DNA of 64,000 nt, from IMG/VR virus record IMGVR_UViG_3300047472_000191, positions 32,001-96,000 of that record; one strand, 5' to 3'. The notes below the pieces were generated by a model. The model saw nothing but the letters and a program-made list of their open reading frames with translations, was not told where the DNA came from and did no database searches. Both the position numbers and the translations under genes were made by a program. The DNA is from a virus. This document shows positions 1,225-55,846 of the stretch, one piece after another; the first letter of the stretch is position 1, and the number at the start of each line of letters is the position of its first letter.

Positions 1225-1593
1225 ATGGATCTGACGGTTGGGCAGATGGCGCACGTGGTGCACGAGGCGAACCGGGCGTTACAGCGGATTGTCGGGGATG
1301 CCGTGGTATCCCCGACGTGGTGGGAGGCCCCACTGCATCAGCGGGACGGGCTCATGCACGGCGTGCGGAGGGCTCTTGCGGGCGCTACGCCGGAAGAGCT
1401 GCACGAGGAATGGGTGCAGTGGCGCACGGACCGGGGATGGCGGTACGGGCTGATCAAAGATGACTTTGCCAAGACCCATCCGTGTCTGGTCCCGTATGAC
1501 CAGCTGCCTGCCGAACAGCGGGTGAAGGATCATCTGTTGTTGGCGATCGTGACCACGCTGGCGGCGCACTTGTCTCCGGTGGAATCGGCCTAG
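1225..1593 (+). CDS. RyR (ryanodine receptor repeat) domain protein
   Basis: HEEW...GWRYG..KD...KTHPCLVPYDQLP..QRVKD signature. Confidence 0.85.
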   Translation: MDLTVGQMAHVVHEANRALQRIVGDAVVSPTWWEAPLHQRDGLMHGVRRALAGATPEELHEEWVQWRTDRGWRYGLIKDDFAKTHPCLVPYDQLPAEQRVKDHLLLAIVTTLAAHLSPVESA

Positions 1594-1628
1594 TTGCACA
1601 CCCCTAGTTCATTGTGCTAGGGTAGATA
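1594..1628 (+). promoter_or_regulatory. conserved phage promoter TTGCAC-N18-TAGGGT-AGATA (type copy of a dispersed family)
   Basis: Sigma70/HrdB-like -35, TG extension and -10. Related -10 boxes at 2258, 2530, 3249, 3840, 4227, 13198(-), 15009, 16188, 17378, 33694, 56155, 57962, 58834, 59326. Confidence 0.8.
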
Positions 1629-1664
1629 TATCGCAACGAGGAACACCGAACCGAGGAGACCCTC

Positions 1665-2177
1665 ATGCCCGTAACACCCCTGCTGCAACTCGATGTCGAC
1701 GGCGTGCTTTCGCCGGATAAAGCCTGGTCAAAGCCCCAGGGCTACAACGCGTTCCAGGTCTGGCGTACCGAGCTGGGTATCACCCAGAGGAAGCCCCAGC
1801 GCATGTGGCTGAACAAGAACCATGGGACGTGGCTCAAGGCACTCGACGTCGACATGATCTGGGCAACCGCCTGGGAGGGTGCTGCGAACTGGGAGATCGG
1901 CCCGCGCATCGGCCTGGATCCCATGGACCACATCACCTTCAGCAATCGCAGCTATCTGCGAAACCCCGACGGGTCTCACTGGAAGTTGGACGACGTGATG
2001 CTGAACGCGGACGGGCGGCCGTTCGTATGGGTGGATGACGGTATCTCGGGTGCGGACACCGTCAGGGTCGCACTGGAGTACCCGGCGCCTGCTCTCCTGT
2101 ACCGCGTCGATCCCCGGTGGGGGCTCACCATTGACGACATGACCAGCATCTGGCAGTGGATCGATGTCGTGTCGTAA
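1665..2177 (+). CDS. HAD-superfamily protein (RNA-repair-associated HAD type)
   Basis: LDVDGVL motif I, WATAW, PFVWVDD motif IV. Confidence 0.8.
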   Translation: MPVTPLLQLDVDGVLSPDKAWSKPQGYNAFQVWRTELGITQRKPQRMWLNKNHGTWLKALDVDMIWATAWEGAANWEIGPRIGLDPMDHITFSNRSYLRNPDGSHWKLDDVMLNADGRPFVWVDDGISGADTVRVALEYPAPALLYRVDPRWGLTIDDMTSIWQWIDVVS

Positions 2178-2202
2178 CGGGGTACGCACGTTCTGTAGCA
2201 GG

Positions 2203-2233
2203 GAAGCCTGTCAGCTCCGGCTGGCGGGCTTTC
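2203..2233 (+). terminator. intrinsic terminator
   Basis: AAGCCTGTCAGC-TCCG-GCTGGCGGGCTT followed by T-rich run. Confidence 0.65.
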
Positions 2234-2292
2234 TTGCGCGTAAGATCTCTTTTTCACTAGGGTAGATAAAATTATCTAGCGAGGGATGCAAC

Positions 2293-2523
2293 ATGGATCT
2301 GTCCAGTCTTGAGTCGGACCCGGTGAGCGCGGTCAATCCCAATGAGCTGCTGAACAGGCTGCGGGAGGCCTGTCAGCAGACGATGACGGACTTGGACGAC
2401 CCGGAGACTGCGGAAGAGGTTGCTAGCAACGAGGCGGTCATGGCGACGCTTTTCTTGCAGCTGGACGACTGGCTGTCCCGGAGGGGGTTCCTGCCCGCCG
2501 CGTGGCAGGACACAACCGAGTAG
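2293..2523 (+). CDS. hypothetical protein
   Basis: Follows promoter motif at 2234-2268 and GAGG RBS. Confidence 0.65.
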   Translation: MDLSSLESDPVSAVNPNELLNRLREACQQTMTDLDDPETAEEVASNEAVMATLFLQLDDWLSRRGFLPAAWQDTTE

Positions 2524-6831: not shown

Positions 6832-7398
6832 TTGCCGTCCACGACTCCGACCCCCGCCGCCGAACAGAAAATCCTGCTACGCGCCCGGGAGGTCGCTTTG
6901 ATCCGCAATACACCACGGCCGGGGGATATCGGCTTAACGTCCATAGAGGGCTATGTCGGGTTCCTTATCCGATTAGGCCAGTGGCTCAATGGAGACGGCT
7001 TTTCCCACTACGAGCACGCTTTCATCGTCCTCGAAGACGGCATGCTGATAGAGGCCATGCCGGGCGGTGCGCAGATCGTCCCGCTATCCGAATACGACGA
7101 CCGCGACGTGCTGTATGTGAGCCCCGCTGGTCTCACCGATGCGGACCGGAAACGGATATGCGATGCGGCACGGAATTTCGAGCACACGCCGTACAGCTTT
7201 CTCGACTACGCGGCGATAGCAGCCCACCGGTTACGGCTGCCCTTACCGGGGCTCCGGGATTACGTGGCAGCAACGGACCATCTCATTTGCAGTCAGTTGG
7301 TTGACCGGGCGTACGAAGACGCCGGGATCAAGATCTTTTCCGATTCGAGATGGGATGGCTGGGTGACCCCAGGAGCGCTGTACAAGCGGCTGAAGTGA
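6832..7398 (+). CDS. permuted papain-like NlpC/P60 amidase (YiiX/YebB-like)
   Basis: PGDI..., H(YE)HAFI, IEA..GG, PY, ICSQLVDRAY (His before Cys), VTPG.L. Confidence 0.8.
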   Translation: MPSTTPTPAAEQKILLRAREVALIRNTPRPGDIGLTSIEGYVGFLIRLGQWLNGDGFSHYEHAFIVLEDGMLIEAMPGGAQIVPLSEYDDRDVLYVSPAGLTDADRKRICDAARNFEHTPYSFLDYAAIAAHRLRLPLPGLRDYVAATDHLICSQLVDRAYEDAGIKIFSDSRWDGWVTPGALYKRLK

Positions 7399-13896: not shown

Positions 13897-13897
13897 G

Positions 13898-18474: not shown

Positions 18475-18741
18475 ATGAGCCTCATAAACGACTTGGTGAG
18501 CATCGAATCCCGACGCGGCACCTATCCCGGCCCCCAGTGCACCGTCGCGCGAATCATGGGCCAGATCAGCGAAGACGACCGCGCCCAGCTGTGCCGCGTC
18601 CTCGACAACCCCGACATCCCCGGCTCCGTCATCGCCGGGGCGCTCACCAGCAACGGATACCCGGTGGCCGACAAAACGGTTCTGCGGCACCGCAAGCGCG
18701 GCACCGCGTCTGGCTGCCACTGCCCCAAGGGTGATGAGTGA
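18475..18741 (+). CDS. small Zn-binding HTH-like protein
   Basis: C.V..I...LD....L...GY.V...TV.RHR....C.C; coupled to the phosphoesterase gene. Confidence 0.7.
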   Translation: MSLINDLVSIESRRGTYPGPQCTVARIMGQISEDDRAQLCRVLDNPDIPGSVIAGALTSNGYPVADKTVLRHRKRGTASGCHCPKGDE

Positions 18742-19999: not shown

Positions 20000-20329
20000 G
20001 TGTCTCACGACGACGCCGAATCCGACGGTGAAGAGCTGGCGATCCCTCCGGGGATGCTCCCCCTGATCCACATCGAAGAGCCGGAGGTTGCCGCACTGCG
20101 GTGGACGCCCACCACGTTCTTCATCGACCTGTTCATGTCCGTCGCGGGCATCATGGAGGCCATCGCCGGTTTCTACGGTGACCAGGCCCGATCCCTCGCC
20201 GCCCGCGCCTCCCTCAAGGAGGAACTGAAGGACCGCGCGATCCGGCAGCAGATCAGAGCCGAGGAACGCCGCCGGATGCAGCTCCACACCCTGGAAGACA
20301 TCGCCTACTTACCCGAGGCCACAGAGTGA
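20000..20329 (+). CDS. hypothetical protein
   Basis: GGGGAG RBS before GTG. Confidence 0.6.
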   Translation: MSHDDAESDGEELAIPPGMLPLIHIEEPEVAALRWTPTTFFIDLFMSVAGIMEAIAGFYGDQARSLAARASLKEELKDRAIRQQIRAEERRRMQLHTLEDIAYLPEATE

Positions 20330-36373: not shown

Positions 36374-36407
36374 TTGTGCCGCGAGACCATCAAAAAGAGG
36401 CTCTGTC

Positions 36408-37036: not shown

Positions 37037-38665
37037 ATGGCGGAACGCGAATTGCTGTTATCCCCTCAGGATGACGGTGCCGCTGTCGAGCTGTCTTCTC
37101 GGGTGTACCGCAAGCGGATCCTTCCGAAGGCCACGATCCACTACCGTGGCCGCAAGATCACTTTCGATGACCAGTACCTGCACGACCTCGCCAACTCCTT
37201 CCAGCAGGGCGCCTACGATCAGGTGGCCTTCATGATGGCCCCGGACAACAACAGCCACACCCTGGACCCGGAGCGGTTCCGTGGTGAGATCAAGGATGTT
37301 GAGGTCGGTGACGATGGCCTGTACGGCATCTTCCAGGTCACCCCTGAGGCTGCCAAGGTGCTGGAGCAGAACCCGAAGTTAGGTGTTTCTGCGCGCATCC
37401 TCGAAAACTACTCGCGCTCGGATGGGAAGCAATTCCCCCGGGCGCTTCAACATGTCTTGGGGACCCTCGATCCGGTAATCCCCGGACTGGGTAGCTGGGA
37501 AGAGGTTGCCCTGTCCAACGGGATCGATCCGGGCAATGTGATTGACCTGTCTGAACTTTCCTACGAGGAGTTGGAGCCCGTGACCACACGCGCTGAAAAC
37601 CTACAGCAGGTGGCTGCGGCTACCGACATGACCGTGGAAGATCTCGAAGCGCTCGACATGACTGACGACGAGCTGGCGATTTTCGCGTCAGCGTTCGTCG
37701 ACACCGAGCCTGCGGCAGAGGCTGCGGCCGAATCCGCCGAGGATGACGAGCTGGTCGAAGAGCCCGGCGAGCAGGGCGATCTTTTCGCTGCGGCGGACGA
37801 GGCCACCGACGAGGCTCTCCCTTCCGAGGAGGAGATCGAAGCCGCTGTGGAGGCCCTCTCCGATGAGGAGCTGACCGCCCTGGCGGCCGAACTCGGCATC
37901 CCGGCCGACGAGGAGCTGGAAGCCGCCGAAGAGGCGGGCGAGGAAGAGGCCACGGCCGAGGTGGAGACCGCCGAAGAGGCCGAAGAGGTTGCTGAGCCCA
38001 CCGATGCCGAACTGGCGGAGCGCCTGGGCACTGGTGAGTTCGGCAGCGGCATCGACGAACCCGTTGAGGACCCGGACCTGGGTGACCTGACCGACGAGGC
38101 CCTGGCCGAGATGACGGAGATGTGGGAGACCGCTCACGCCGCCGACGACGCCACGGGCGCGGAGGAAGCTGCCGCTGTCGCCGCCGAAGCCGCCGAGACG
38201 GCTGAGACTGCTGTGGAGGCCACGGAGGTGGCTGCCGAAGCGGCTGAGACCGTTGCGGAAACCCCGCAGCTGGTCGGCGCCGGATCGGTTTCCCTGTCCA
38301 ACGAGGCCGCCCCCGAGGTTGTGGCCCTGTCCAACCAGGTGAGCACTCTTCAGCAGCAGCTCGCGGAGCAGCAGTTCGACACCCTCAAGCGGGAGTACGT
38401 CCGCCAGGGGGTTCCCTCGGCTCTGGTCGACCTGGCCCGTCCGGTCCTGGTCGCCGGTCGTGCCCTGGAGTTCTCCAACAGCGTGGGCGACACGGTGGAT
38501 CCGGCGGACATCGTCCGGCAGCTTCTGGACTCCGCCACCGGCTACATCGATCTGGCCCGCGAACGCGGTCACAGCTACTCGCCGGAAGCCGAGGACAAGG
38601 CGGCGATGGCAGCCGAAGAGGACAAGCGTCTCGCCTCCCTGTGGGGCGAGCAGTACGGCATCTGA
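37037..38665 (+). CDS. prohead protease (Mu gpI-like) fused to acidic scaffold
   Basis: N-terminal H...PE...G.I..V....DGLY, GVSARI, L.HV..T.DP.IPGL; long Glu/Ala-rich scaffold; precedes capsid genes. Confidence 0.8.
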   Translation: MAERELLLSPQDDGAAVELSSRVYRKRILPKATIHYRGRKITFDDQYLHDLANSFQQGAYDQVAFMMAPDNNSHTLDPERFRGEIKDVEVGDDGLYGIFQVTPEAAKVLEQNPKLGVSARILENYSRSDGKQFPRALQHVLGTLDPVIPGLGSWEEVALSNGIDPGNVIDLSELSYEELEPVTTRAENLQQVAAATDMTVEDLEALDMTDDELAIFASAFVDTEPAAEAAAESAEDDELVEEPGEQGDLFAAADEATDEALPSEEEIEAAVEALSDEELTALAAELGIPADEELEAAEEAGEEEATAEVETAEEAEEVAEPTDAELAERLGTGEFGSGIDEPVEDPDLGDLTDEALAEMTEMWETAHAADDATGAEEAAAVAAEAAETAETAVEATEVAAEAAETVAETPQLVGAGSVSLSNEAAPEVVALSNQVSTLQQQLAEQQFDTLKREYVRQGVPSALVDLARPVLVAGRALEFSNSVGDTVDPADIVRQLLDSATGYIDLARERGHSYSPEAEDKAAMAAEEDKRLASLWGEQYGI

Positions 38666-39207: not shown

Positions 39208-40128
39208 ATGCCTCAGACCACTGTCGGAACCGTTTCTTCGAACGATGGCTTCCGCCTCACAGTCAACACGCTGCTCAAGCGGCCGACCGTCATCCGGGAG
39301 CGCATTCTCCGGCTGGCCGACCAGCAGTTCATCACCGACACGGTGTTACGCAAGGTGCAGGACGTTCCGTCCGGCGTCGTGCTGTACAACGAGTCGACTC
39401 CGCTGTACGCCAACGGCGGCCCGTCGGTCGTCGCGGAGGGCGGCGAGATTCCGCTGATCACGGCGAACCTCGGCATCGGCAAGGCGGCCCGTACCATCAA
39501 GCGCGCCTTCGGTATCGAGTTCACCGAGGAGATGCGTCGGCGCAACGACATGGACCGTGTCAACACGTCCATCGCGCAGGTCGTCAACTCCATGAAGGCC
39601 GCCTGGGAGGACGCGTTCCTCTCCGCCGCCATCGCGGGTCTCGCGTCGACCGCTTCGGGTACCGCGTGGGCGACCGCCACGGACGTCCGGTCCACTCTGG
39701 CGAACGCGATGCTGGCGATCCAGCTGGCCGACGCGGAGTCCACGGACCAGACTGGCGTGCAGAAGTTCGGGTTCGAGCCGGACACGCTGATTCTGCATCA
39801 CGCGCGTGCGATGGACCTGGCGCTCAACTCCGACATGAACAAGTACTTCACCGGTTCCGGCGCCCCGAACTCCGCGTACGCCGACAAGCTGACCCTCCCG
39901 GGCCTGCTGTTCGGTCAGTTCAAGGTCGTCAAGTCGTGGCGTGTCCCGACCAACTCGGCGATCCTCCTGGAGGCCGGGACGATCGGTGGCATCGCCGATG
40001 AGCGTGCGTTGGACGTGACGCCGCTGGAGCACAACAGCACCAACGAAACGTGGCGCTGCAACGTGGTCCGCCAGTCCGCGATCTTCCTGGATCAGCCTAA
40101 GGCGGGACGCGTCATAACGGGTATCTAG
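39208..40128 (+). CDS. major capsid protein (HK97 fold)
   Basis: VAEGGEIP, K.......TEEMRRRN, FEPDTL, DQPKA...ITGI; position. Confidence 0.88.
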   Translation: MPQTTVGTVSSNDGFRLTVNTLLKRPTVIRERILRLADQQFITDTVLRKVQDVPSGVVLYNESTPLYANGGPSVVAEGGEIPLITANLGIGKAARTIKRAFGIEFTEEMRRRNDMDRVNTSIAQVVNSMKAAWEDAFLSAAIAGLASTASGTAWATATDVRSTLANAMLAIQLADAESTDQTGVQKFGFEPDTLILHHARAMDLALNSDMNKYFTGSGAPNSAYADKLTLPGLLFGQFKVVKSWRVPTNSAILLEAGTIGGIADERALDVTPLEHNSTNETWRCNVVRQSAIFLDQPKAGRVITGI

Positions 40129-42249: not shown

Positions 42250-42843
42250 GTGATTACTATTCCCGGCAGCATAAACCCGAAGAACGTTGTCGTCGGCGTA
42301 GCGTCGGCCTGGATTCAGCCGTACGACCCGAGCGTTCCGGCTCTCCTGCCTGCGGTCACCATCGCCAAGGGTGCGGACTGGGGCGGCAACTGGCAGAACC
42401 TCGGCGCCACCGACCAGGGCTGGAAGCTCCAGATCGGTACGTCCACCAAGTCGATCACGATCGAAGAGCAGTCCACACCCGCTCTCGTCATGGCCGACAA
42501 CCACAGCTACCAGGTGACCGGTGACCTCGCCGAGGACACCCTCCAGCACGCCTTATGGGCGTACGGCGGCGGCCAGCTGGTCACCACGGCGGCGGCGTCC
42601 GGCGTCCCCGGCTACCAGACCCTGAGCCTCCAGGACAACCTGAACTACTGGGCGATCGGCCTGGAGACCATCAACGTGCAGGGCTTCTGGCGCCGGTACC
42701 TGATCCCTCAGGGCGTCGTCGGCACCAACGTGGACACCTCGTTCCGCCGGTCCAACGAGAAGCGCATGTACTCCTTCCAGTTCGAAGGCACCTGCGCCCC
42801 GTCCCAGCTCGTCATCCAAGAGATGGTGGCCGCTGCACTTTAG
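42250..42843 (+). CDS. major tail (tube) protein
   Basis: N.VVG.A, W..LGAT..G, L.E.TL; precedes chaperone and tape measure. Confidence 0.85.
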   Translation: MITIPGSINPKNVVVGVASAWIQPYDPSVPALLPAVTIAKGADWGGNWQNLGATDQGWKLQIGTSTKSITIEEQSTPALVMADNHSYQVTGDLAEDTLQHALWAYGGGQLVTTAAASGVPGYQTLSLQDNLNYWAIGLETINVQGFWRRYLIPQGVVGTNVDTSFRRSNEKRMYSFQFEGTCAPSQLVIQEMVAAAL

Positions 42844-42894: not shown

Positions 42895-43281
42895 ATGGCA
42901 TTCGTTGCTCACGAGGCGATCGAGCCGCTCGACTACGATTTCACGCACTTCATGGACGGTTCCGAGGCGAAGGGGACCGTGCCGGAGCCGAGCCAGCAGG
43001 CCATGGCGGGGTACCGCAAGGCCGTTCTGGCGGTCGTCCGCGACTACAAGGACGTTCAGGACGTCGACCCGGACACGTTAAGCAACGACGAGCTTGACCG
43101 GATCACCGACCGCGCCGAGGAGCTGGAGAAGCGCATGGACGAGCTGACGGCCCGTCTCTGCAAGAACACTCCGTCCGTGGAGACGCTCAGCAAGCTGCCG
43201 TGGCGCCACAAGGTGATGTTCTCGAAGTGGCTCCAGGAGCAGTTCAACCCGGGAAAATTGACGGGCGTTACGAAGGACTGA
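42895..43281 (+). CDS. tail assembly chaperone (gpG-like)
   Basis: Between tail tube and tape measure; slippery GGGAAAA at 43251. Confidence 0.85.
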   Translation: MAFVAHEAIEPLDYDFTHFMDGSEAKGTVPEPSQQAMAGYRKAVLAVVRDYKDVQDVDPDTLSNDELDRITDRAEELEKRMDELTARLCKNTPSVETLSKLPWRHKVMFSKWLQEQFNPGKLTGVTKD

Positions 43282-43646: not shown

Positions 43647-46600
43647 GTGTCCGGAACGTATTCGGCCGGAGACATCGAAGCCTCCCTCAAGTTAGACAGG
43701 TCTGAGTTCAACCGGGAACTCACGCAGGCCAAGCGGGATGCTGAGGATTTCCAGAAGCAGACCTACAAGCCGAGGGTTTCCCTGGATGATACCGAGGCCA
43801 AGACAAAAATCCAGGCGCTCAAGGACGAACTCCAGAGCCTTCACAACATCACGGTCTCTGCCGCGTTATCGGGTTTCGACTCTGCCAGCACCCACTTAGC
43901 GGCCCTCCAGGCGCAAGCCGACCACCTCAATGGCATGGTCATCACGATTTATGCCGACGTGGACACGACGGCGGCAGCAGCCTCTCTCACCGCACTGCGG
44001 GCAGCCGCCAGTGACAACATCACCATCCATGCGGACGTGGACACGCGGGTAGCTGCGGCGTCTCTTGCACGTTTGCGTGCGGCTGCTGCCGACCCCATCA
44101 ACATCCCCACTGGGGGCGGGGATCCTGGCGGTCCTGCACCAAGGCCTCGCCCTGGTGTCCCCGATGGGGATGATGAGAGGAACCGGAAGCTCAAGGACCC
44201 GTTCAAGATCCCGGGGGCGCTGTTCAGCCTTCCGGGGCTCATTGCCTCTGTTCTGCCTCAGCTCCCGGCCCTGACGACCCTGCTGGGCGGTGCTACGGCT
44301 GCGGTGGTCTCGTTCGGTGTCGCGGCGGGCGGTGCCCTCGGTGTGTACGGCGCCGCGACCATGGGCGCGGTCAAGCAGGCGACGGCACACAAGAAGGCCG
44401 TGGAGTCCACGGGCAAGGCGCTTGAGGCGGCCCAGGCACGGCTGGCTGGGACCACGGCCGGTACGGCTGCGTACACGAACGCTCTGAAGGCGGTCACGGA
44501 GGCGGAGAAGGCGCACAAGGAGGCGCTCAAGGATCTGACTCCGGCGGAGAAGCAGTTCACTGACTCCCTGAACGGTGTACAGACTGCCTGGCAGTCGTTC
44601 ATCAAGTCCACCGAGGTGTACACGCTCAAGCCGGTTGCGACCGTCCTGGACGGGGCGAAAGCCGCGCTGCCTCAGCTCATCCCTCTGGTCAAGGATCTCG
44701 CCCCCGCTTTCCAGAGCGTGGCCGTGGCCATGAAGAACTGGCTGAGTGGCGACGGTCTGCACCGGTTCGTCTACTTCCTCCGGACTACTGGTGTGCCGAT
44801 CGTGCTCCACATGATCGCCGGGTTCCGGACGTTCATGGCGGCAGGCGGTGCGCTTATGCGCGCGTTCGGGCCGATTGCAGTAAAAATGTCCGAGTACTTC
44901 GAGACACTGGGCAAAAAATCGGAGGCGTGGGCACAGGGCGGGGGAGTGCTCCGGTTCCGCGATCACTTCTTTGAGGCCTGGCACCAGCTCAAGCCGATTT
45001 TCAGTGAGCTGATCACCCTCGTCGGGCACATCTGGGAGATCCTTCAGGGGACCGGCAGCCCCAACGCGAACGCTCTCGTAGGTGTGCTGCACGGGCTGAA
45101 CACGGCCATCGGGAACCTTCAGCCCGCAGCGGTGAAGTCTCTGGGCGAGATCTTCCAGTCCATCAGCGACGTGGCGATCCAGCTGGCTCCGGTCATCGGG
45201 ATCACGTCCAAGGCGATCGTCGACATCATCAACGTGCTGCCGCCCGGGACGATCCGGGCTATCGCGGACGCCATGATCGCGTGGAAGCTGGCCGTCCTCG
45301 GATGGAATGCCGCCATTGCGGCCTGGGCCTTCCTCACCTCGATTATCGCAGGCCTGACGCTGGCCTGGCGCACCCTCAGTTTTGTTTTCGCGGCTTCTCC
45401 GATCGGTGTCATTGTCACGGGCCTTATCCTGCTTGTCGGGATCATTGTCCTGATCGCCACGAAGACCACCTGGTTCCAGACACTTTGGAAATACACCTGG
45501 GAAGGCATAAAAATTGCCGCCCACGCTGTATGGGTCAACGTGTTGCAACCTACTTTCCATGGGATTTGGGTTGGCCTCCAGGAAATCGGCAAATGGGGTG
45601 TATGGCTGTGGAACAACGCCCTTAAACCGGCATGGAACGGGATCGCCAGCGGCGCTTCCTGGCTATGGGGCTACCTCAAGCCGGTGCTTGTGGGCATCGG
45701 AAACGCATTCATGCTGGTCGGCAAGGTCATCTGGATTTTCTGGTCCACCTACGCCAAGGTCGTCTTCATTATTTTCGAAGCGGCTATCAAGGCGCTCTGG
45801 CTGTACGTCCTCAAACCGGTGTTCGGGTGGATCGCCGCAGGCTGGCACGCCCTGGGTACGGGCGTGATGTGGGTCTGGCATCACCTGCTCAAGCCTGCCT
45901 GGGACCTGGTGGTCGCCGGAGCCATTTACGTGTGGAACCACGGCGTCAAGCCCGCCATCGGGTGGATCACCGCAGGCTGGCATGCCGTGGGTGACGGCGT
46001 GATGTGGGTGTGGCGGCACCTGCTCAAGCCTGCCTGGGACATGGTGTCGGATGGTGCCACCAAGCTGTGGAAAAACTACATTTCGCCGGTATTCAACGGA
46101 ATCAAGAACACCATCAGCGACAAGTGGGACTGGATCAAGGCGCACGTATTCAGCCCGATGGGTGATTTCTTCACCAAGAAGATCCCCGGCTGGGCCGACA
46201 CGATGAAGGGCAAACTGGTCACCGCCTTCGATACCGCTTGGAAGGGTATTCAGAAGGTCTGGGACAACGTCAAAAAGGCGATCGGGTCGCCTATCTACCT
46301 GGTCGCGAAGTACGTCTGGAATGACGCGATTTACGGGATCATGGACAAGATCTCCGGATTCGTGCACCAGAAGAACCCGCTCGGGAAAATCCCGCTGGAC
46401 AACATCCCGCACTTCGCAGCCGGTGGCCCGGTACGGGGAGGTACCCCCGGCAAGGACTCCGTGCTGTCCATGCTGATGCCCGACGAGCACGTCCTCACCC
46501 GCGAGGACGTCGCAGCCATGGGTGGTCAGCACGCCGTGGCTCGCTTCCGTTCCGCCCTGCACGGCGGCGCCCCTGTCCAAGGCGCCAACAACACGGGCCA

Positions 46601-48305
46601 CTTCGGCATCGGCGGCTGGATCGGCGACGCAGGCTCCGCCCTGGCCGGGACTGTCAGCAAGGGCCTGGGCGTACTCAAGGACGCCGTCCTGGGGGCTGTC
46701 GGGGTCGTGGTTAACCCGCTTCTGAACGCCGCCGAGAAGACCGTCGACAAGCTCATCCCAGCCAACGGCGGCTGGGAAAACCTGGCCAACGGAACGTTGA
46801 AGCAGCCGATCGAATGGATCAAGGGCTTCATCAACAAGGAAGACAAGAAGGCCCAATCCGTCGGCGGCGTCATCCCGGCCGGACAGCACCTCGCGATCAT
46901 CGACGCAGCCCTGAAGGCTGCGGGAGCCCCTCCGCCCGGAACTAAGGAGCAGTGGGAAGCCGGGATGAACACGCTGATTCAGCGTGAGTCCGGGTGGAAC
47001 GCCTCCGCCATCAACAACTGGGACTCCAACGCGAAGGCCGGGCACCCCTCGCAGGGTCTGACGCAGACGATCCCGTCCACGTTCAACGCCTACGTTCCGC
47101 CAGCGCTGCGGAGCCTGGGCATCCTCAACCCGATTGCCAACGTCGCGGCCTCCGTCCGCTACATCAAGTCCGTGTACGGCGGCATCCAGAACGTTCAGCA
47201 GGCCAACGCCAACAAGGCCCCCAAGGGCTACTGGACCGGTACCTCTGGGGCCGCTCCGGGTATGGCCTGGGTCGGTGAGCGCGGTCCCGAGCTGATCGAC
47301 TTCCACGGCGGGGAGACGGTCTACAACAACGGCGACTCGATGCGCATGCTGCGTTCCGGGCTGCTCGGGGGCCTGCACGGCTACGCCTCCGGTACCGCGA
47401 AGCAGCGGTCCACCGTGCGCCGGACTTACCACGAACTGGACAGCGACACGGCCCGGCGCAACGCCGCACAGAAGGCCTACAACGCGGCGCACACGAAGTA
47501 CCTGAACGCGACCACGGCCAAGGAGCAGCAGGCCGCGCGCAAGGAGATGGACAAGTACCAGAAGCGGATCGACAACGCGAACAAGGAGATCGCGGCCGAC
47601 AACAAGTTGATCAAGCTGCACGACAAGAAGTACAAGGCCGCCTCGGATGCCGTCCGCCGGGAGCGGGCCGATGCTGCGGCTCTGGCGGCTGCTCGCAAGA
47701 AGAAGCGGGACGCACAGATCTCTGCGGCCCGGACGGCGGCGCAGAACTTCATCAACAACGCGAAGGCCAAGATCGACGCGAAGCTCCAGGTGGCGACCGA
47801 TGCCCGCAACGGGTATTACGACGCGGCGAAGCAGAGCGGACAGCTGACCAACCTGACGGGCAACCGGGCGGCCGGGTTCACCCAGCAGCTTCAGGCGAAA
47901 ATCACTGCAATCAAGAACTTCCAGGCAAACCTGCACAAGCTGGCTACTCTCGGCCTCTCGCAGGGGGTTATCCAGCAGATCGCGGCCATGGGGGCGGACC
48001 AGGGCGGGGCGCTGGCTCAGTCGCTTGCCCGGACGACGACGGCGGCCGATGCGAAGGGTCTCAACGCGAAGTACGCGGAGCTGGACAAGGTGGCAGGGCA
48101 GTACGCGGATTCGGCTGCGAATGACGGGTACGGTCTGAGTTCCCTAAAGGCCCAGTCAGCAGTTCTTTCCAAGACGAAGATTACGGTAACGGCGCCGAAT
48201 ACGATCATGGTTACTATTGACGGAAAGACCTTCAAGGCCCACACCGAAAAGGTTGTTGAATCGAAGGTGACCGAGATCGTGGACAAGGCTGGAAAGAAGA
48301 AGTGA
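43647..48305 (+). CDS. tape measure protein with lytic transglycosylase domain
   Basis: 1552 aa helical; Trp-periodic LKPAW repeats; FAAGG; IQRESGWN..AINNWDSNA..G.PSQGL.Q.I..TF. Confidence 0.93.
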   Translation: MSGTYSAGDIEASLKLDRSEFNRELTQAKRDAEDFQKQTYKPRVSLDDTEAKTKIQALKDELQSLHNITVSAALSGFDSASTHLAALQAQADHLNGMVITIYADVDTTAAAASLTALRAAASDNITIHADVDTRVAAASLARLRAAAADPINIPTGGGDPGGPAPRPRPGVPDGDDERNRKLKDPFKIPGALFSLPGLIASVLPQLPALTTLLGGATAAVVSFGVAAGGALGVYGAATMGAVKQATAHKKAVESTGKALEAAQARLAGTTAGTAAYTNALKAVTEAEKAHKEALKDLTPAEKQFTDSLNGVQTAWQSFIKSTEVYTLKPVATVLDGAKAALPQLIPLVKDLAPAFQSVAVAMKNWLSGDGLHRFVYFLRTTGVPIVLHMIAGFRTFMAAGGALMRAFGPIAVKMSEYFETLGKKSEAWAQGGGVLRFRDHFFEAWHQLKPIFSELITLVGHIWEILQGTGSPNANALVGVLHGLNTAIGNLQPAAVKSLGEIFQSISDVAIQLAPVIGITSKAIVDIINVLPPGTIRAIADAMIAWKLAVLGWNAAIAAWAFLTSIIAGLTLAWRTLSFVFAASPIGVIVTGLILLVGIIVLIATKTTWFQTLWKYTWEGIKIAAHAVWVNVLQPTFHGIWVGLQEIGKWGVWLWNNALKPAWNGIASGASWLWGYLKPVLVGIGNAFMLVGKVIWIFWSTYAKVVFIIFEAAIKALWLYVLKPVFGWIAAGWHALGTGVMWVWHHLLKPAWDLVVAGAIYVWNHGVKPAIGWITAGWHAVGDGVMWVWRHLLKPAWDMVSDGATKLWKNYISPVFNGIKNTISDKWDWIKAHVFSPMGDFFTKKIPGWADTMKGKLVTAFDTAWKGIQKVWDNVKKAIGSPIYLVAKYVWNDAIYGIMDKISGFVHQKNPLGKIPLDNIPHFAAGGPVRGGTPGKDSVLSMLMPDEHVLTREDVAAMGGQHAVARFRSALHGGAPVQGANNTGHFGIGGWIGDAGSALAGTVSKGLGVLKDAVLGAVGVVVNPLLNAAEKTVDKLIPANGGWENLANGTLKQPIEWIKGFINKEDKKAQSVGGVIPAGQHLAIIDAALKAAGAPPPGTKEQWEAGMNTLIQRESGWNASAINNWDSNAKAGHPSQGLTQTIPSTFNAYVPPALRSLGILNPIANVAASVRYIKSVYGGIQNVQQANANKAPKGYWTGTSGAAPGMAWVGERGPELIDFHGGETVYNNGDSMRMLRSGLLGGLHGYASGTAKQRSTVRRTYHELDSDTARRNAAQKAYNAAHTKYLNATTAKEQQAARKEMDKYQKRIDNANKEIAADNKLIKLHDKKYKAASDAVRRERADAAALAAARKKKRDAQISAARTAAQNFINNAKAKIDAKLQVATDARNGYYDAAKQSGQLTNLTGNRAAGFTQQLQAKITAIKNFQANLHKLATLGLSQGVIQQIAAMGADQGGALAQSLARTTTAADAKGLNAKYAELDKVAGQYADSAANDGYGLSSLKAQSAVLSKTKITVTAPNTIMVTIDGKTFKAHTEKVVESKVTEIVDKAGKKK

Positions 48306-48306
48306 T

Positions 48307-49635
48307 ATGCCGGTTGTAGTCCCCACAGGATCCCCGGTCTCCTCTTCGACCACGGACTCGACGTCTTTCGACGGACGTATCCGGGTCATAGACGACCCGG
48401 CGTTCGGCGGTGTCCGCATCAAGATCGACTACTCGTTGGACCTCAACTTGTGGTCCAACCCTTTCCAGTGCACGGTGTACCGGAAGCACGAAGACGGCTC
48501 CGTGTACACGGTGCGTGGCGGAGACCCCTACCTCAACTACGCAGGCAAGGGCTGGCTGTACGACCAGGAAGCCCCCCTTGGCCAGCCCGTCTCCTACTAC
48601 GTCGTACCCATCGACGCCGACGGGGGCACGGGGGTCCAGTCGGCTGTCGCCTCCATTCTCACGGGCACTCCGGCGGGCGGTTTCAACAGCCCCGACATGT
48701 GGCTGGTCAACCTCGCCGATCCCAGCGCCTCGGTGCGGGCACGCGGCCTCAACACGCTTGCCGGTAACTACAACGGGCGCAGCGACAAACAGACGGTCCT
48801 CGGCAGCCCCTTCCCCACGGTGACGCCGGACACCCGGAACGGACTGAGCACCCAGATAACTGTGCTCACGGTCGGGCAGCAGGAATTCGTTGCCATGCAG
48901 AAGCTCTTGAAGCAGAGCATCATCATGCGGAAGTCGTCGTTATGGGAAAGGCCTGACGGCTATTTCACCGTGGACGACGCCTCCTATGCAGCCCAGACCG
49001 CCGGAACAGGGCGAGGCGCGTACGCCTGGCAGATGGGCCTTACCGAGGTAAACCGCCCCAATACGTACGGCCAGACCGTCGCCAGTCCCTCTTTCACCTT
49101 TGCCTCATATCGGGATCAGTTCCCGCTGTTCAGTGATGCCCCCATGCTGCCGTTCGATGCCATCCAGGGCGGCAACGTCATGGACCCCAACACGTCCAGC
49201 CTGGAAACCGACGATTCACAGTGGGTGGCAAACACCAACACGACCAAAACGTGGTCGGCGGAACAGGCCAAGCAGGGCACGCACTCCCTGAAAATGGTCG
49301 CCACGACCGTCGGCGTTTTCGGAGCGTTCACCGGGCCGCGCTTCCCGGTGAACCCGGACGCCGTCTACACGTTCACGGCGTGGCTGTACAGCCCGAACGG
49401 CCTGGTGGCGGACCTTCAGCTCGACTGGAAGGACGGTGCGGGCGGCTACCTCGCCAGTGATTCCCTCGGTGAGTGGGGGCGGACGGTGGCGCTCACCCCC
49501 AACATCTGGACCAAGGTCGCTCTGTCCGTCAAGCCGGTTCCCGGGGCAGCTCTGGTCACGCCGCTGGTCCGTCTGACCGCAACAGCGGGCGGCCAGGTCG
49601 GTTATGCGGACAGCATGAGTCTGGAGAACATCTGA
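48307..49635 (+). CDS. minor tail protein (distal-tail-like) with C-terminal carbohydrate-binding module
   Basis: Follows tape measure; YD.EAP.G..V.Y; C-terminal beta-sandwich. Confidence 0.75.
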   Translation: MPVVVPTGSPVSSSTTDSTSFDGRIRVIDDPAFGGVRIKIDYSLDLNLWSNPFQCTVYRKHEDGSVYTVRGGDPYLNYAGKGWLYDQEAPLGQPVSYYVVPIDADGGTGVQSAVASILTGTPAGGFNSPDMWLVNLADPSASVRARGLNTLAGNYNGRSDKQTVLGSPFPTVTPDTRNGLSTQITVLTVGQQEFVAMQKLLKQSIIMRKSSLWERPDGYFTVDDASYAAQTAGTGRGAYAWQMGLTEVNRPNTYGQTVASPSFTFASYRDQFPLFSDAPMLPFDAIQGGNVMDPNTSSLETDDSQWVANTNTTKTWSAEQAKQGTHSLKMVATTVGVFGAFTGPRFPVNPDAVYTFTAWLYSPNGLVADLQLDWKDGAGGYLASDSLGEWGRTVALTPNIWTKVALSVKPVPGAALVTPLVRLTATAGGQVGYADSMSLENI

Positions 49636-51572: not shown

Positions 51573-52208
51573 GTGGGAGCCACGTTCAGCGCGTTTTCTG
51601 CACTTCCGGTGCCGGATACCGCAGCCAGCAATGACGTCCCCTACTGGTTATCCCAGCTGGTGGCCGTCCTGGACACCAAACTCGTTCTCGCCGCTACCTC
51701 CACGGCGGACCGGGACAGCCGCTACTTCAGCGCCCCGTCCGGTGTGATCTGCGTCGTCCGTGACGGCACCGGGACCGTTCTCGGCGTGTACGTGAAGACG
51801 TCCAACGCCGGAACGTCCGTCTGGTCGACCATCTGGACGGCACCTGTCCCGCAGACTCCGGTCAACATCCCCCTTTCGGACGGGGTGCAGGTAGCGAACG
51901 GCAAGCCGCCTATCGCTGTCTACAACCCCGCCGCGAACACCTGGACTTTCTGGGGAAACGTCGGTTTCACCAACGGCACGAACATACCGACCAACACCAT
52001 TCTCGGAACTGTTCCGGCGGCGGTTTCTCTCAGCACGGTTCAGCCCTACTACGAAGGTATTGCCCCCACGTCGGTCGGAGGAACCGGCAGCCCGTCCGGA
52101 GGGGCAAAAATTTCTTTCTCGGTCGGTGGCAACATCGTGATATTCCTCCCGTCCGGCGTCTCTCCGGCCTGGGTCGGTTTTGACGGCATTGTGCTTCCGG
52201 GCGCGTAG
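51573..52208 (+). CDS. minor tail protein
   Basis: LP.PD, ST.DRD..Y..P.G motif; AGGAGG RBS. Confidence 0.7.
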   Translation: MGATFSAFSALPVPDTAASNDVPYWLSQLVAVLDTKLVLAATSTADRDSRYFSAPSGVICVVRDGTGTVLGVYVKTSNAGTSVWSTIWTAPVPQTPVNIPLSDGVQVANGKPPIAVYNPAANTWTFWGNVGFTNGTNIPTNTILGTVPAAVSLSTVQPYYEGIAPTSVGGTGSPSGGAKISFSVGGNIVIFLPSGVSPAWVGFDGIVLPGA

Positions 52209-52219: not shown

Positions 52220-53284
52220 GTGGCGCGTTTCATTTACGGTGGTGGTGGTGACGGGGACATCATCAAACCCACAGGTGTTCCGTACATCAACGCCAGTGCA
52301 AACGTGTTCGACGCACGCACCGGCGGAACTCAGATAGCGGATCTCCAGAACATTTCCGGATCCGCTATCACCTCGGTGGCCACGGACGCGTTCGGGCAGG
52401 CCATCTTCTACGGCCCCGACAACTACATTGGCGTCCTCTGGCTCGACTTCGGCAGCGGCGTCCGATGGGCGGTATCCCCCAAGGCGGTAGACCTCGCCGC
52501 GTTACGGGCGATCGGCGTGCAGCGGGCAGCTGACGCCGCCGCAACGACCCCGACCGCGAAGGCAGGGCTCCCGTACAACGCGGCGGATCCACTGGAACAA
52601 GCGCTTGCGGCAGCCCTTGACCCCCTGGTCATCCCCCGGTTCGCGTCCCAGTCGGCCCGGGACGCGGCCTTTCCGTCTCCCCAGGGCGGTGACAGGTGCT
52701 GGCGGACTGACCTGGCCCTTGAGCAGGTCTTCAACGGCAAGCTGGGTCTGTGGCGGAACAACAGTTTCGCCTACAACTTCGGGTCCGTGGGCGGGTCGGT
52801 GACGGTCGCCAACACGGTTACCGAAACCCAGCTGTCAGTGACAACGGTCCCTGCGAATACTCCGGCTGGGGCGACGTTCAAGGTGACGGGTTACGGCTCA
52901 ATCGTTCAAGCCGCCAACGCGACCCCCACCCTGACGCTGCGGCTCAAGGTCGGGGGCGTATCGGGTGTGAGCCTAGCGGCGAACTCCTGGACGGCGGCCA
53001 CCAACGCAACACCGAGTGCGCGTGCTTGGCAGGTCCAAGGATTTGTCACCCTGAATTCAACCGGTGCCAGCGGGACCTGGTTCGGGAACCTGACGGGTTC
53101 TTCTACTATCACCAGCACTACGCCCCTCTTCAGCTCCGGGGCGTCCTTGCGCAGTGACGGTACTTCGCTTACCACAAGGGACTCTACGGTCTCTCAAAAC
53201 CTCTCTCTGACCGCTCAATGGGACGCCGCGTCCGCATCGAACAGCGTTATTCAGTACGGCTGGGCCTGGGAAAGGGTCTGCTGA
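52220..53284 (+). CDS. tail fibre / receptor-binding protein 1
   Basis: MARFIYGGGGDG N-terminus; PRFAS.SARDAAFP.P..GD; Thr/Ser-rich C-terminus. Confidence 0.75.
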   Translation: MARFIYGGGGDGDIIKPTGVPYINASANVFDARTGGTQIADLQNISGSAITSVATDAFGQAIFYGPDNYIGVLWLDFGSGVRWAVSPKAVDLAALRAIGVQRAADAAATTPTAKAGLPYNAADPLEQALAAALDPLVIPRFASQSARDAAFPSPQGGDRCWRTDLALEQVFNGKLGLWRNNSFAYNFGSVGGSVTVANTVTETQLSVTTVPANTPAGATFKVTGYGSIVQAANATPTLTLRLKVGGVSGVSLAANSWTAATNATPSARAWQVQGFVTLNSTGASGTWFGNLTGSSTITSTTPLFSSGASLRSDGTSLTTRDSTVSQNLSLTAQWDAASASNSVIQYGWAWERVC

Positions 53285-54255
53285 TGGCCAGATTCCTCTA
53301 CGGCGGAGGTGGGGACGGAGACGTCATCAAGCCCACGGGTACGCCGTTCCTCAACACCACAGCGCTGGTCTACAACTCCCGGTCGGGAGGCACGCTGATT
53401 ACCGATCTCCAGAACATTTCCGGTACCTCTATCGGTCAGGTGACCACCGACTCCAACGGGCAGGCCATCTTTTTCGGGCCGGACAACTACATCGGTACGC
53501 TGTGGCTCGACTTCGGCAGCGGCAGCGGCGTGCGGTGGGCTCTGTCGCCCAAGGCCGTGGACCTGGCCGCTACCCGGGCTATCGCGGTACAGCGGACGGC
53601 AGACGCGGCAACTCCGAGCTTCACCACGAAGGCTCACCTGCCCTACAACGCGGCGGACCCGCTGGAACAGGCCCTCGCGACAGCTCTGGACCCTCTGGTC
53701 ATTCCCCGGTTCGCCACAGCAGCAGCCAGGGACACCGCGTTCCCGGCTCCGGCGAACGGTGACCGGTGCTACCGGACCGACCTTGCTGCCGACCAGGTGT
53801 ACACCGGAACGGCCTGGGTGACTCTGGTACAGGCAGGGCCGTGGACACAGGCGAACCTTTCCATATCTCCGACGTCGGGCAGTTTCTCTGTAGGTACTGG
53901 ATCGCTCACTATCCGGTACCAAATCCAGGGGAAGGGTGTGGAGTTCTACATCGGCTTGACTGTGGCGGGGGACACCACGGTGGGGAACGGTGTGTGGACC
54001 GTCACCGGATTACCTTTCAGCATCTCGGCATCCAGCATTTTGGTGACGACTTTCCCGGGTCAGGTGTTCACCGGCTCCGCGCGTTTTATGGCGATTGCGC
54101 AGGCGGAAACAGCCACTACGCTTTCCCTGTGGTCCTATGCATCAACGGGTTCTACCGCAGTTACCCGGATCGGCGGCAGTGGTTCCACCCCCGGCGGCGG
54201 AACCTGGCAGGCCGGTAACTTCCTCCGCGTGGGCGGTATCGCAGAACTCGCCTGA
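53284..54255 (+). CDS. tail fibre / receptor-binding protein 2 (N-terminal paralog of previous gene)
   Basis: MARFLYGGGGDG N-terminus; same PRFA..AARD..FP.P..GD; different C-terminus. Confidence 0.75.
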   Translation: MARFLYGGGGDGDVIKPTGTPFLNTTALVYNSRSGGTLITDLQNISGTSIGQVTTDSNGQAIFFGPDNYIGTLWLDFGSGSGVRWALSPKAVDLAATRAIAVQRTADAATPSFTTKAHLPYNAADPLEQALATALDPLVIPRFATAAARDTAFPAPANGDRCYRTDLAADQVYTGTAWVTLVQAGPWTQANLSISPTSGSFSVGTGSLTIRYQIQGKGVEFYIGLTVAGDTTVGNGVWTVTGLPFSISASSILVTTFPGQVFTGSARFMAIAQAETATTLSLWSYASTGSTAVTRIGGSGSTPGGGTWQAGNFLRVGGIAELA

Positions 54256-54284
54256 CATCCGGGCGGACTAGGAAAGGGAACAGC

Positions 54285-54563
54285 ATGACGGAATACACAC
54301 GACGCTACCCAAGCGGTTCGTCGGACTTCTATCCGAACGGCACCACTCTTCAGGTCAGCTACGTCGTTGCGGGTACCGACGGTTCTTCTATCGAAGGCAC
54401 ACTCGACACGCACGGGCTTCTCACAGAGGACCAGATAGACGAACTCGCCTTCGCCATTCAGACCGCGTGTTCCGGTCTTCCCTGGCTGTCGACATCCTTC
54501 GTTACGGTCCTGGAGGACGGCCGCCGGGCATTTTCTGTCTCTCCGGTAACACCTCCACAATAG
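54285..54563 (+). CDS. hypothetical protein (possible fibre chaperone)
   Basis: Follows the fibre genes. Confidence 0.6.
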   Translation: MTEYTRRYPSGSSDFYPNGTTLQVSYVVAGTDGSSIEGTLDTHGLLTEDQIDELAFAIQTACSGLPWLSTSFVTVLEDGRRAFSVSPVTPPQ

Positions 54564-54635
54564 GGACGTTCTAACGAAATAGCCTCCCTTGGTACGATCC
54601 AAAGAGGCTAATTCTGGTTCCCGAGGGGCAATTCA

Positions 54636-55028
54636 ATGAGCGTTCCGTTAGACACCCTCATAACCACGGGTGCAGTGGTCTTCGGGAGCTTATCGACCTA
54701 CGCAGGGACGCGGTACATGGGTCGGAATACGAACGCCACCGAAAACCGCAAGGTAAAGCTCAGTGAGTTCGAGACGTTCAAAGAGGCGTACTACGAGCAG
54801 ATCGCTGAGTTCAAGGAACGCTACGCGACTCAAGAAGCGAAGATGAACAAGGTGGAACGTCTGCTTCGCCTGGCTCTCAAGCACATCCGGGACCTGCGCA
54901 CCGACATGCGGCAGCACGACGTCATTCCGTCCCACGGGACGCCGTCCGAGCTGGAGAGCCTGCTGTGGACTCTCACGGATGAGGACGATGCGGAGGTCAC
55001 CGCGTCGCACCCCGGATCGGGGGAGTGA
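54636..55028 (+). CDS. membrane protein with coiled coil (lysis cassette)
   Basis: N-terminal TM segment followed by coiled coil. Confidence 0.65.
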   Translation: MSVPLDTLITTGAVVFGSLSTYAGTRYMGRNTNATENRKVKLSEFETFKEAYYEQIAEFKERYATQEAKMNKVERLLRLALKHIRDLRTDMRQHDVIPSHGTPSELESLLWTLTDEDDAEVTASHPGSGE

Positions 55029-55591
55029 TGCGCGTTCCCCGGGCCCAGCTCCGTCAGGCCCTGATAGCAGCGGGCGCACAGAGCGGGACATGGGCACAGC
55101 CCGGAACGGCCGAGACTCTGGCAGCTGTGGCCCTCGCCGCGTCGGGGGTTCAAGGGGAAGCGGACTGCGATACGACGGACGGCCTGCGAGTCACCGTCTT
55201 CCAGATCGAGACGCGTCCCGCAGACACCGGACGGCGTACCCCGCGAGATCGGGAGTGGCTCACCGACGGCCTCTCCAACGCGTGCTTGGCGGCCGTAGCG
55301 CTCACGCACATGAACGGGCTGAAGATGTGGCCCGAGTACACGTCCGGCGCCTACCGGCGCTACCTCCCGGAGGCGCATCCCCCGTCCATACAGCGGCCTG
55401 AGGACGACGTTCCGTACCAGGAGGCCCCCGTGTTCCCCGGCGTCCCGCTACGGCTCCTGATGCGCGCCTGCGGATGGATCGCCCCGTCCAACGTAGACGC
55501 CGACCGGATCGCCGGGATCAACGGCTTTCCCTCCGCCGCAGACGTTCCCGCAGGGCACGTTGTGCGGATCCCCGTACAGCGGGGCTGGTAA
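55028..55591 (+). CDS. lysozyme-like (SLT) fold plus LysM-like domain, catalytic Glu apparently replaced
   Basis: L..AG...A..LAAVALAASG, FQI, N...A, W..Y.SGAY.RYL; C-terminal IA.ING....V.AG.V.RIP. Confidence 0.6.
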   Translation: MRVPRAQLRQALIAAGAQSGTWAQPGTAETLAAVALAASGVQGEADCDTTDGLRVTVFQIETRPADTGRRTPRDREWLTDGLSNACLAAVALTHMNGLKMWPEYTSGAYRRYLPEAHPPSIQRPEDDVPYQEAPVFPGVPLRLLMRACGWIAPSNVDADRIAGINGFPSAADVPAGHVVRIPVQRGW

Positions 55592-55627
55592 TCGGCCCCG
55601 TGCTGAAAACCGAGTGAGAGGACTCTC

Positions 55628-55846
55628 GTGAACAAGTTCCTGAATCGTGCCTTCCTGAAGGACGTTGCGGACCGCACCGTCTCCACCTACGTACAGGCGT
55701 TCGTGGGTCTGGAACTGTCCGACATGACCAACCTGACGTCCATCGGCGCCACCAAGGCCGTTGCGATCGCCGCGCTGCCTGCGGCGTTAGCCGTGCTCAA
55801 GGCCGCGCTCAAGGGCGCCGCCAAGCAGGACACCGCTGGCGTCTGA
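55628..55846 (+). CDS. holin (r1t-like)
   Basis: F.KD.A.R.V.T..QAF.G and two hydrophobic helices. Confidence 0.8.
   Translation: MNKFLNRAFLKDVADRTVSTYVQAFVGLELSDMTNLTSIGATKAVAIAALPAALAVLKAALKGAAKQDTAGV

Follow-up and report, generated by a model that had tools for sequence, protein, structure and literature searches.

The window analysed here is a 64,000-nt stretch of phage DNA (bases 32001-96000 of the 124,939-bp IMG/VR record IMGVR_UViG_3300047472_000191), and its subject is the leucine codon TTA, which in this genome is found almost only in genes for virion structure and lysis. Alignments with related phages show, at the level of sequence, that TTA in most of the major virion, tailspike and lysis genes is kept by selection on the codon. 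On balance we think it probable that these codons act as a selected translational gate, with TTA placed in virion, tailspike and lysis genes and excluded from early, replication and partition genes, which would operate via the host tRNA-Leu(UAA). The source record is linear, with a CheckV completeness of 97, a GC content of 63.8% and a single tRNA gene. Coordinates are window positions unless prefixed with "genome".

The whole genome contains 37 in-frame TTA codons in 23 genes, and the share of the window is 31 codons in 20 genes. Twenty-six of them lie in 18 of the 33 genes of one plus-strand block (18738-55846), which encodes the large terminase, a Mu-type portal, MuF-like and HNH proteins and a protein of 1942 amino acids (aa) ending in an ADP-ribosyltransferase domain; after this giant gene come capsid, tail, tape measure and minor tail genes and an r1t-type holin. 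Four dispersed genes hold another 10 TTA, namely a GH25 endolysin, two tailspikes and a papain-fold open reading frame (ORF) at 6832-7398. The remaining 146 genes contain a single TTA, at 1279 in a RyR-domain gene. Genes outside the block include those for primase-polymerase, ParA, DUF2637, dCMP-deaminase-like, ADP-ribosylglycohydrolase and SNF2 helicase proteins, as well as PD-(D/E)XK nuclease, ThyX, RecA-like and DNA polymerase I genes. An earlier sequence-only reading of this DNA had counted at least 34 TTA codons in 21 genes; its pattern was right although its number was slightly high, and every TTA coordinate that it listed is an in-frame TTA of a called gene (1279 and the block positions in Table 1). 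It had also seen none in early, partition, helicase and nucleotide genes, which agrees with one TTA in 146 genes, the codon at 1279 being already on its list.

Genes were called with a home-made procedure combining codon log-odds, trained on 32 long ORFs with high GC content at third codon positions (GC3), a Shine-Dalgarno bonus and dynamic programming. The caller was re-run with TTA scored neutral, so that the choice of start codons was not biased against TTA, and 183 genes were called. The start of the giant gene was shifted by hand to 27554 on evidence from relatives, whose alignments begin at residues 3-7 of that start.

When position alone was considered, the block carried 26 TTA in 10,752 codons versus 11 in 23,466 elsewhere (odds ratio (OR) 5.2, p 2e-6). 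For a function-based test, a virion/lysis class (the late class) was formed from the block plus the endolysin, the two tailspikes and the C92-like ORF at 6832-7398, these four being added on independent family evidence. This class held 36 TTA in 13,389 codons versus 1 in 20,829 for all others (OR 56, p 5e-14) or, by gene, TTA in 22 of 37 genes versus 1 of 146. Since the dispersed virion and lysis genes are marked too, TTA tracks gene function and not position alone. The sequence-only reading had proposed other AT-rich codons as a control, and none was enriched in late genes relative to the rest (CTA OR 0.75, ATA 1.12, TTT 0.79, TAT 0.94, CAA 0.91). TTA read in frames 2 and 3 gave ORs of 1.37 and 1.16, which are not significant, and GC3 was 0.827 in late and 0.842 in other genes, GC likewise being equal between the classes. 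Expected TTA, calculated from TTG scaled by the CTA/CTG ratio, was about 1.4 in late genes versus 35 observed, and about 3.5 in the others versus 1 observed; most of the signal is therefore surplus TTA in the late class.

The TTAs were often near the 5' end, as had been noted from the sequence alone: codons 2-20 hold 15 of 35 late-class TTAs, yet only 703 of 13,378 codon positions (OR 13.8, p 7e-11). The same test gave ORs of 0.7-4.5 for other AT-rich codons, and early genes showed no TTA effect. Within late-class genes GC3 is 0.73 in the first 20 codons versus 0.84 in the rest, the codons flanking TTAs are GC-rich, and no DNA or RNA motif was seen around the TTAs in 30 contexts inspected. False 5' TTAs from wrong starts were ruled out by alignment to relatives for the head genes, the tape measure gene and the gene at 54636; the ATG at 25006, for example, aligned in 17 of 17 relatives. 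Five non-late genes could be extended upstream to include a TTA, and two of these extensions overlap the preceding gene. An extension of 62323-62871, which would add a TTA, is unsupported, the alignment with the relative G3 (described below) beginning at residue 35; the other two TTA-containing extensions, at genome 100340 and 105169, may belong to their genes. A call-independent GC3 frame test was uninformative, missing TTAs near gene starts and flagging 13 uncalled candidates. The candidates checked either faced a called gene on the other strand or came from reverse reading of a minus-strand stop codon; one fell in an intergenic gap, in a plus-strand ORF running antisense into the ParA gene.

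Relatives were collected with a terminase search, which returned 17 IMG/VR contigs (83-91% identity) and one contig (88%) of a metagenome-assembled genome (MAG), and with a capsid search, which returned 20 loci at 86-99% identity and 16 at 34-42%. Two long relative records, G2 (89 kb) and G3 (50 kb), with DNA 75-89% identical to the window, were taken whole. Late versus other TTA numbered 25 versus 6 in G2 (OR 7.2, p 7e-7) and 25 versus 0 in G3 (p 6e-5). The sequence-only reading had suggested checking whether TTA is conserved among related phages. Over nine lineage representatives, 67 of 97 site-by-lineage comparisons (69%) still had TTA, whereas retention of the 25 other rare codons ranged from 0 to 30%, and mean retention per site was 0.71 for TTA versus 0.18 for the other rare codons (Mann-Whitney p 4e-14). 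Pairwise against G2, 7 of 11 TTA were kept, compared with 5 of 33 TTG, 0 of 12 CTA and 12 of 57 CTT. At gene level, TTA was present in 19/19 capsid, 11/11 tail tube, 11/11 chaperone and, at a coverage of at least 80%, 8/8 tape measure genes of relatives, and in 1 of 140 gene-by-relative pairs of the other class. TTA was absent from the scaffold gene of all 18 relatives and, in every relative, from four small head-completion genes.

Where a site is lost, a second TTA stands elsewhere in the same gene (capsid codons 47 and 17, tail tube 102 and 33, chaperone 62 and 45), with CTG at the lost site wherever an alignment covers it. In the capsid the alternate site is then CTG or CTC, and the four relatives with a codon-17 TTA have CTG at codon 47; tail tubes with a codon-33 TTA have CTG at codon 102 in the 9 of 11 in which it aligns, and chaperones with a codon-45 TTA have CTG at codon 62. 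Two base substitutions separate TTA from CTG. The pattern indicates selection for having a TTA in certain genes. The portal codon-6 TTA is kept although the first 50 residues are only 47-64% identical among relatives. The ORF at 6832-7398 gave weak YaeF/C92 papain-fold matches, below cut-offs, and is 80% identical over its full length in G2, with the start ATG aligned. Coordinates and the state of each site are given in Table 1.

Table 1. Positions of TTA-carrying genes, tRNAs and promoter-like motif sites, with the occurrence of TTA in related phages
Feature	Position	Strand	TTA codon (position)	TTA in relatives
416-aa gene, PHROG 284 'exonuclease', first TTA gene of block	18738..19988	+	12 (18771)	
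109-aa gene upstream of terminase	20000..20329	+	104 (20309)	at least one in 11/11
Large terminase	20537..22240	+	16 (20582)	15/15 where site aligns
Mu-type portal (PF06074)	22298..23854	+	6 (22313)	16/17
107-aa head-region gene	24652..24975	+	5 (24664)	17/17
658-aa head-region gene	25006..26982	+	8, 15 (25027, 25048)	codon 8 16/17; codon 15 8/17
1942-aa head-module protein, C-terminal ADP-ribosyltransferase (PF03496)	27554..33382	+	11, 17, 44, 54 (27584, 27602, 27683, 27713)	codon 11 12/13; codon 17 11/13; codon 44 9/13; codon 54 0/13
542-aa gene before scaffold	37037..38665	+	8, 115 (37058, 37379)	at least one in 15/15, at positions 6, 8, 115, 144, 179, 188/189
Major capsid protein	39208..40128	+	47 (39346)	19/19; codon 47 in 15, codon 17 in 4
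Tail tube, by synteny with Crosby major tail protein	42250..42843	+	102 (42553)	13/13; codon 102 in 2, codon 33 in 11
Tail assembly chaperone position	42895..43281	+	62 (43078)	11 relatives: codon 62 in 7, codon 45 in 4
Tape measure protein	43647..48305	+	16, 74, 84 (43692, 43866, 43896)	3-8 in each of 11 aligned, nearly all in first ~140 codons, positions shifting
Minor tail gene	48307..49635	+	212 (48940)	kept in G3
Tail-region gene	51573..52208	+	26 (51648)	kept in G3
Tail-fibre-region gene	52220..53284	+	95 (52502)	
Tail-fibre-region gene	53284..54255	+	243 (54010)	no relative aligned
130-aa gene before holin	54636..55028	+	5, 19 (54648, 54690)	both kept in G3
r1t-type holin (PF16945)	55628..55846	+	54 (55787)	kept in G3
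188-aa ORF outside block	6832..7398	+	35, 48, 134, 138 (6934, 6973, 7231, 7243)	codons 35 and 134 kept in G2
RyR-domain gene, 122 aa, early operon, the lone exception	1225..1593	+	19 (1279)	no relative aligned
GH25 endolysin	genome 13547-15094 (L030:13547-15094)	-	93, 279	both kept in close relative L103
Two pectate-lyase-fold tailspikes	genome 108085-110598, 110665-113970 (L032:12085-17970)		3, 7 in each	kept in both paralogues of L101
Phage tRNA, anticodon CAA, 76 nt, reads UUG, not UUA	13897-13972	-		
83-nt class II CAA tRNA, long variable arm	L001:175-257, L005:292-374, L009:3613-3695, L011:2599-2681, L018:4232-4314			
76-nt CAA tRNA, no long variable arm	L003:2930-3005, L015:2458-2533, window 13897-13972			
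Motif TGTGCTAGGGTAGATACATCA, example sites	1617, 2257, 3248, 3839, 4226, 15008, 16187, 17377, 33693, 57961, 58833			

The comparisons show that, among the loci sampled, TTA marking is confined to the clade of close relatives. The 16 loci with capsids 34-42% identical (GC 57-70%) contain 3 TTA versus 63 CTA in 54,685 codons, and one distant locus with a GC content equal to that of the phage has 0 TTA versus 22 CTA; the clade loci L081-L084 have 41 TTA versus 7 CTA in 15,087 codons. The cultured Streptomyces phage Crosby has 1 TTA in 15,569 codons overall and 0 in 8,699 codons of late genes, and 44 non-clade endolysin homologues have no TTA in their aligned parts. One of the distant loci, L099, is a 124,491-bp contig with direct terminal repeats and a completeness of 100, nearly equal in size to the phage, with a capsid 36% identical; it has no tRNA, 3 TTA in the 21-kb stretch read and 70% GC over the locus.

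The GH25 endolysin (515 aa) is encoded in the left arm on the opposite strand, about 72 kb away from the holin. The tailspikes are tandem paralogues of 837 and 1101 aa outside the tail block, the second with a K1-lyase C-terminal domain, and both open with the common N-terminus MPLP..GL. The gene at 37037-38665, labelled 'protease' in the sequence-only reading, had no family match in the profile scans; these also gave none for 54636-55028.

In the gate that we favour, every marked gene would require the host UUA-reading tRNA-Leu(UAA), which in Streptomyces is bldA, and assembly and lysis would be limited to conditions in which this tRNA is both available and active; replication of the genome and its ParA-type partition would be independent of it. 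A ribosome stalled at a near-start TTA (the bias is to codons 3-20) would block further initiation, and stalls could destabilise a polycistronic late mRNA and so gate late genes without a TTA of their own, by coupling or decay. Such a gate might sense development or nutrient state, or might simply delay late translation. No tRNA with anticodon UAA is encoded by the phage, its only tRNA being CAA, and the same holds in the relatives; the 37 UUA codons of the phage must therefore be read by the host. We infer the tRNA mechanism, the Streptomyces-like host and the link to host development. Having at least one TTA per gene matches the bldA model because one codon suffices (PMC8505568, excerpt). 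It is a more tentative idea, a little short of an even chance, that a codon lock runs through the lineage, in which actinophages of about 125 kb would license morphogenesis and lysis by one host tRNA (bldA) and hence by the developmental or nutritional state of the host, with TTA-free replication and partition genes allowing persistence as an episome.

Non-functional composition or a foreign late module is rejected as the cause of the pattern: GC and GC3 are equal between classes, neither other AT-rich codons nor off-frame TTA are enriched, and dispersed virion and lysis genes are marked too. If shared ancestry is included, a functionless pattern gains from the fact that close relatives share sites by descent, so that raw cross-contig counts are not independent; yet TTA is retained far better than other rare codons of the same alignments, and lost sites are replaced by a new TTA in the same gene, two base changes from CTG, which leaves a pattern without function extremely improbable. 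A second account, in which the TTAs tune the rate of translation on heavily translated late mRNAs as a 5' slow ramp or pause, for ribosome spacing or folding, with no switch and regardless of host state, would suit the 15 of 35 TTAs in codons 2-20 and the lower GC3 of the first 20 codons. A ramp should, however, use all rare codons, and only TTA is strongly enriched there (OR 13.8 versus 0.7-4.5); this behaviour is peculiar to TTA and does not suit a generic ramp of rare codons. Early genes have no TTA ramp, some TTAs lie deep in genes (codons 212, 243 and 279), and the tape measure and terminase genes, whose products are of low copy number, carry as many TTAs as the capsid gene or more. We consider rate tuning unlikely.

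Decoding of UUA might instead be controlled by the phage, with tRNA(CAA) or another factor reading UUA or sparing the host UAA tRNA from UUG, and with timing set by the phage. A CAA anticodon is found at all 7 distinct relative loci covering the site despite the differing tRNA body (the hit in L026 is the same G2 site as that in L018), four distant relatives free of TTA, three with a completeness of at least 91%, have no tRNA, and the TTG use of the phage is not unusual compared with theirs. Against this, a C34 anticodon is expected from decoding rules to read UUG only, and the co-occurrence is within a single clade and so counts as one evolutionary event. Editing of the tRNA by the nearby deaminase (11397-12047) was considered and set aside, its best match being a ComEB-type dCMP deaminase and not a tRNA deaminase, below cut-off. 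Phage-controlled decoding is thus in our view quite improbable, and the bolder variant of the gate in which the conserved phage tRNA(CAA) belongs to the switch is very improbable. The 76-nt tRNA looks unrelated to the 83-nt form, and its lack of a long arm is unusual for a leucine tRNA. Finally, a ribosome-dependent nuclease or some other codon-specific factor, from host or phage, could target in-frame UUA, with tRNA supply not limiting. The frame specificity would fit any mechanism in the ribosomal A site, but no such factor turned up among the phage genes scanned and we know of no UUA-specific nuclease, and we find this account hardly credible.

A Streptomycetaceae-like host is likely, judging from the affinities of the phage proteins. 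ParA shares 64-68% identity with Streptomyces plasmid ParA over 96-99% of its length; its best twelve records are 11 from Streptomyces and 1 from Nocardia, and every genus named in the tally belongs to the actinobacteria (a further six are unlisted). The DUF2637 protein matched 318 plasmid records, 299 from Streptomyces and 9 from Kitasatospora, with identity up to 57.6%. ParA and DUF2637 are the only plasmid-type genes seen in the phage. The C-terminal half of the endolysin has its best matches among Streptomyces phage endolysins, 63 of 101 records being named Streptomyces phages and 3 more Lomovskayavirus C31, and the nearest cultured homologues of terminase and capsid are from Streptomyces phages. 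The gene order shared with Streptomyces phage Crosby points the same way. A search of Atlas with the endolysin gave no host signal, and megablast of 6.4 kb against a phage collection gave no match. Two sequencing runs, each labelled rhizosphere metagenome, contain half or more of the sampled words, and the better of them may be the source sample; seven further runs contain small shares, and there was no RNA run among those listed. Of the interpretation first drawn from the sequence alone, the marking of virion and lysis genes by TTA and its selection hold, and the Streptomyces-like host is likely but unproven; a limiting or developmentally timed bldA tRNA, life as a plasmid prophage and virion production that waits for differentiation are conjectural.

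Several observations weigh against the gate or its host. Fifteen of the 33 block genes are without TTA, the site at 18771 is TTA in 4 of 11 aligned relatives and so weakly conserved, and the site at 52502 is ACG in G3 and thus not conserved. The four dispersed genes joined the late class after their TTAs had been seen, and the position-only test is weaker (OR 5.2); the gene calls rest on a home-made caller. Four TTA genes in the left arm of G2 are not assignable to virion or lysis functions. Even in Streptomyces the strength and timing of the limitation of TTA translation by bldA are disputed. No WhiB was found in the phage, and close relatives were absent from the isolate genomes and plasmids searched. 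A related phage-only contig of 15,906 bp (L001, terminase 88% identical) is binned in a MAG labelled Bacillota, in which a WhiB match was not found. This MAG is 4.1 Mb in size and fragmented, with tRNA gene arrays, and the flanks of its tRNA genes have 57-71% GC. The placement of L001 is probably a mis-binning, and a phage-only contig in a bin is weak host evidence either way.

One of the left-arm genes of G2 (L026:16170-16382, plus strand) encodes a 70-aa protein with an Acb2/Tad1-hairpin domain, a candidate anti-defence sponge, with TTA at codon 6.

Among known systems the bldA regulon (adpA, actII-ORF4, redZ, SCO4263) is the closest in kind. There too TTA is very rare and often 5', and translation depends on one tRNA-Leu(UAA), a dependence that we infer for the phage (PMC8505568 and PMC2000904, excerpts). 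In the excerpted text a single 5' UUA makes SCO4263 bldA-dependent (PMC8505568), UUA-containing polycistronic mRNA appears destabilised without bldA (PMC2000904), and co-transcribed genes are also affected (both sources). The phage shares with such genes in-frame TTA in a high-GC genome otherwise nearly TTA-free (36 codons in 22 genes versus 1 in 20,829 codons). The regulon, in contrast, usually has one TTA regulator per pathway, whereas the phage has 36 codons in 22 genes of the structural and lysis class.

UUA is usually missing from Streptomyces phages, according to the excerpt of PMC10732093. In the Streptomyces phage Hau3, the known exception, a late gene (terminase) carries UUA as in our phage, which was proposed to be a sensor of host growth stage (Smith et al. 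2013, as told in the PMC10732093 excerpt). Hau3 has two UUAs with a 10-nt frame-breaking insert after each, and bypassing was proposed when the tRNA is absent (PMC10732093, excerpt). This logic is the opposite of that proposed here: the phage has ordinary in-frame TTAs in 23 genes with conserved protein on both sides, and no Hau3-type inserts were found after TTA, the frames being continuous and relatives aligning on both sides. Streptomyces phage CW39 has nine in-frame TTA genes (two HNH endonucleases and seven hypothetical), for which its authors suggest bldA dependence; the excerpt of that paper reports no virion or lysis bias and no conservation test (PMC13350457). The nearest cultured relative group is that of Crosby, with terminase and capsid about 40% identical to those of the phage. 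Crosby shares the order portal, MuF, giant protein, capsid, tail and lysis genes, then helicase, exonuclease, RecA-like and DNA polymerase I genes, and differs in its size of 54 kb, its 68% GC, its WhiB gene and the lack of a tRNA in its first 50 kb.

Late-gene codon usage in papillomaviruses is matched to the tRNA pool of differentiated cells, and tRNAs of T4-type phages serve late-gene codons. In these cases, as in the phage, virion genes use codons whose decoding varies by host state or infection stage. They involve a broad bias or virus-supplied tRNAs; in the phage it is a single codon, and a tRNA for this late-enriched codon is not supplied.

In literature searched without supplementary tables we found no published account of phages whose virion and lysis genes are marked by TTA, or of such marking being kept up by positional turnover; neither PMC7650747 nor PMC10276819 mentions TTA or bldA. 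That a rare codon and its tRNA can control expression is a classic idea of Streptomyces biology, still under debate, and the repeated return of TTA by selection to one set of late genes is evolutionary evidence of unusual clarity that the codon itself has a function. The short 5' gene segments offer a simple experimental system. If the gate is real, it would show how a phage can tie virion output to the physiological state of a multicellular host that differentiates, and it would also account for stable carrier or episomal states without a classical repressor switch. If the codon lock is true, this would be the first demonstrated case of a bacterial virus that switches its late genes globally through the availability of a host tRNA. 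TTA marking could also serve as a signature for late genes and for host inference in uncultured actinophages.

A 21-nt motif with the consensus TGTGCTAGGGTAGATACATCA has 50 copies genome-wide (12-mer core, at most 1 mismatch), usually 40-50 nt before a gene on the same strand and with a TTG-containing element about 18 nt further upstream. It looks like an extended -10 promoter, and its -10 element TAGGGT agrees with TAG-purine-purine-T, the consensus published for streptomycetes. Of the 50 copies a single one is in the late block, preceding the small gene 33738-33998, which is independent support for the late-class assignment; the dispersed TTA genes all lack a copy of their own. No shared late promoter was found by a k-mer search of 16 upstream regions, and consensus terminator and promoter scans gave counts at chance level. 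By eye, a hairpin with a T run lies directly upstream of the endolysin gene and of the first tailspike gene. The non-coding gaps 35885-36557 and genome 119054-119777 are each TTA-rich (17 trinucleotides, both strands), these not being codons. The genome also holds both an ADP-ribosylglycohydrolase gene (12108-13154, minus strand) and the giant protein with its ADP-ribosyltransferase domain (27554-33382, plus strand).

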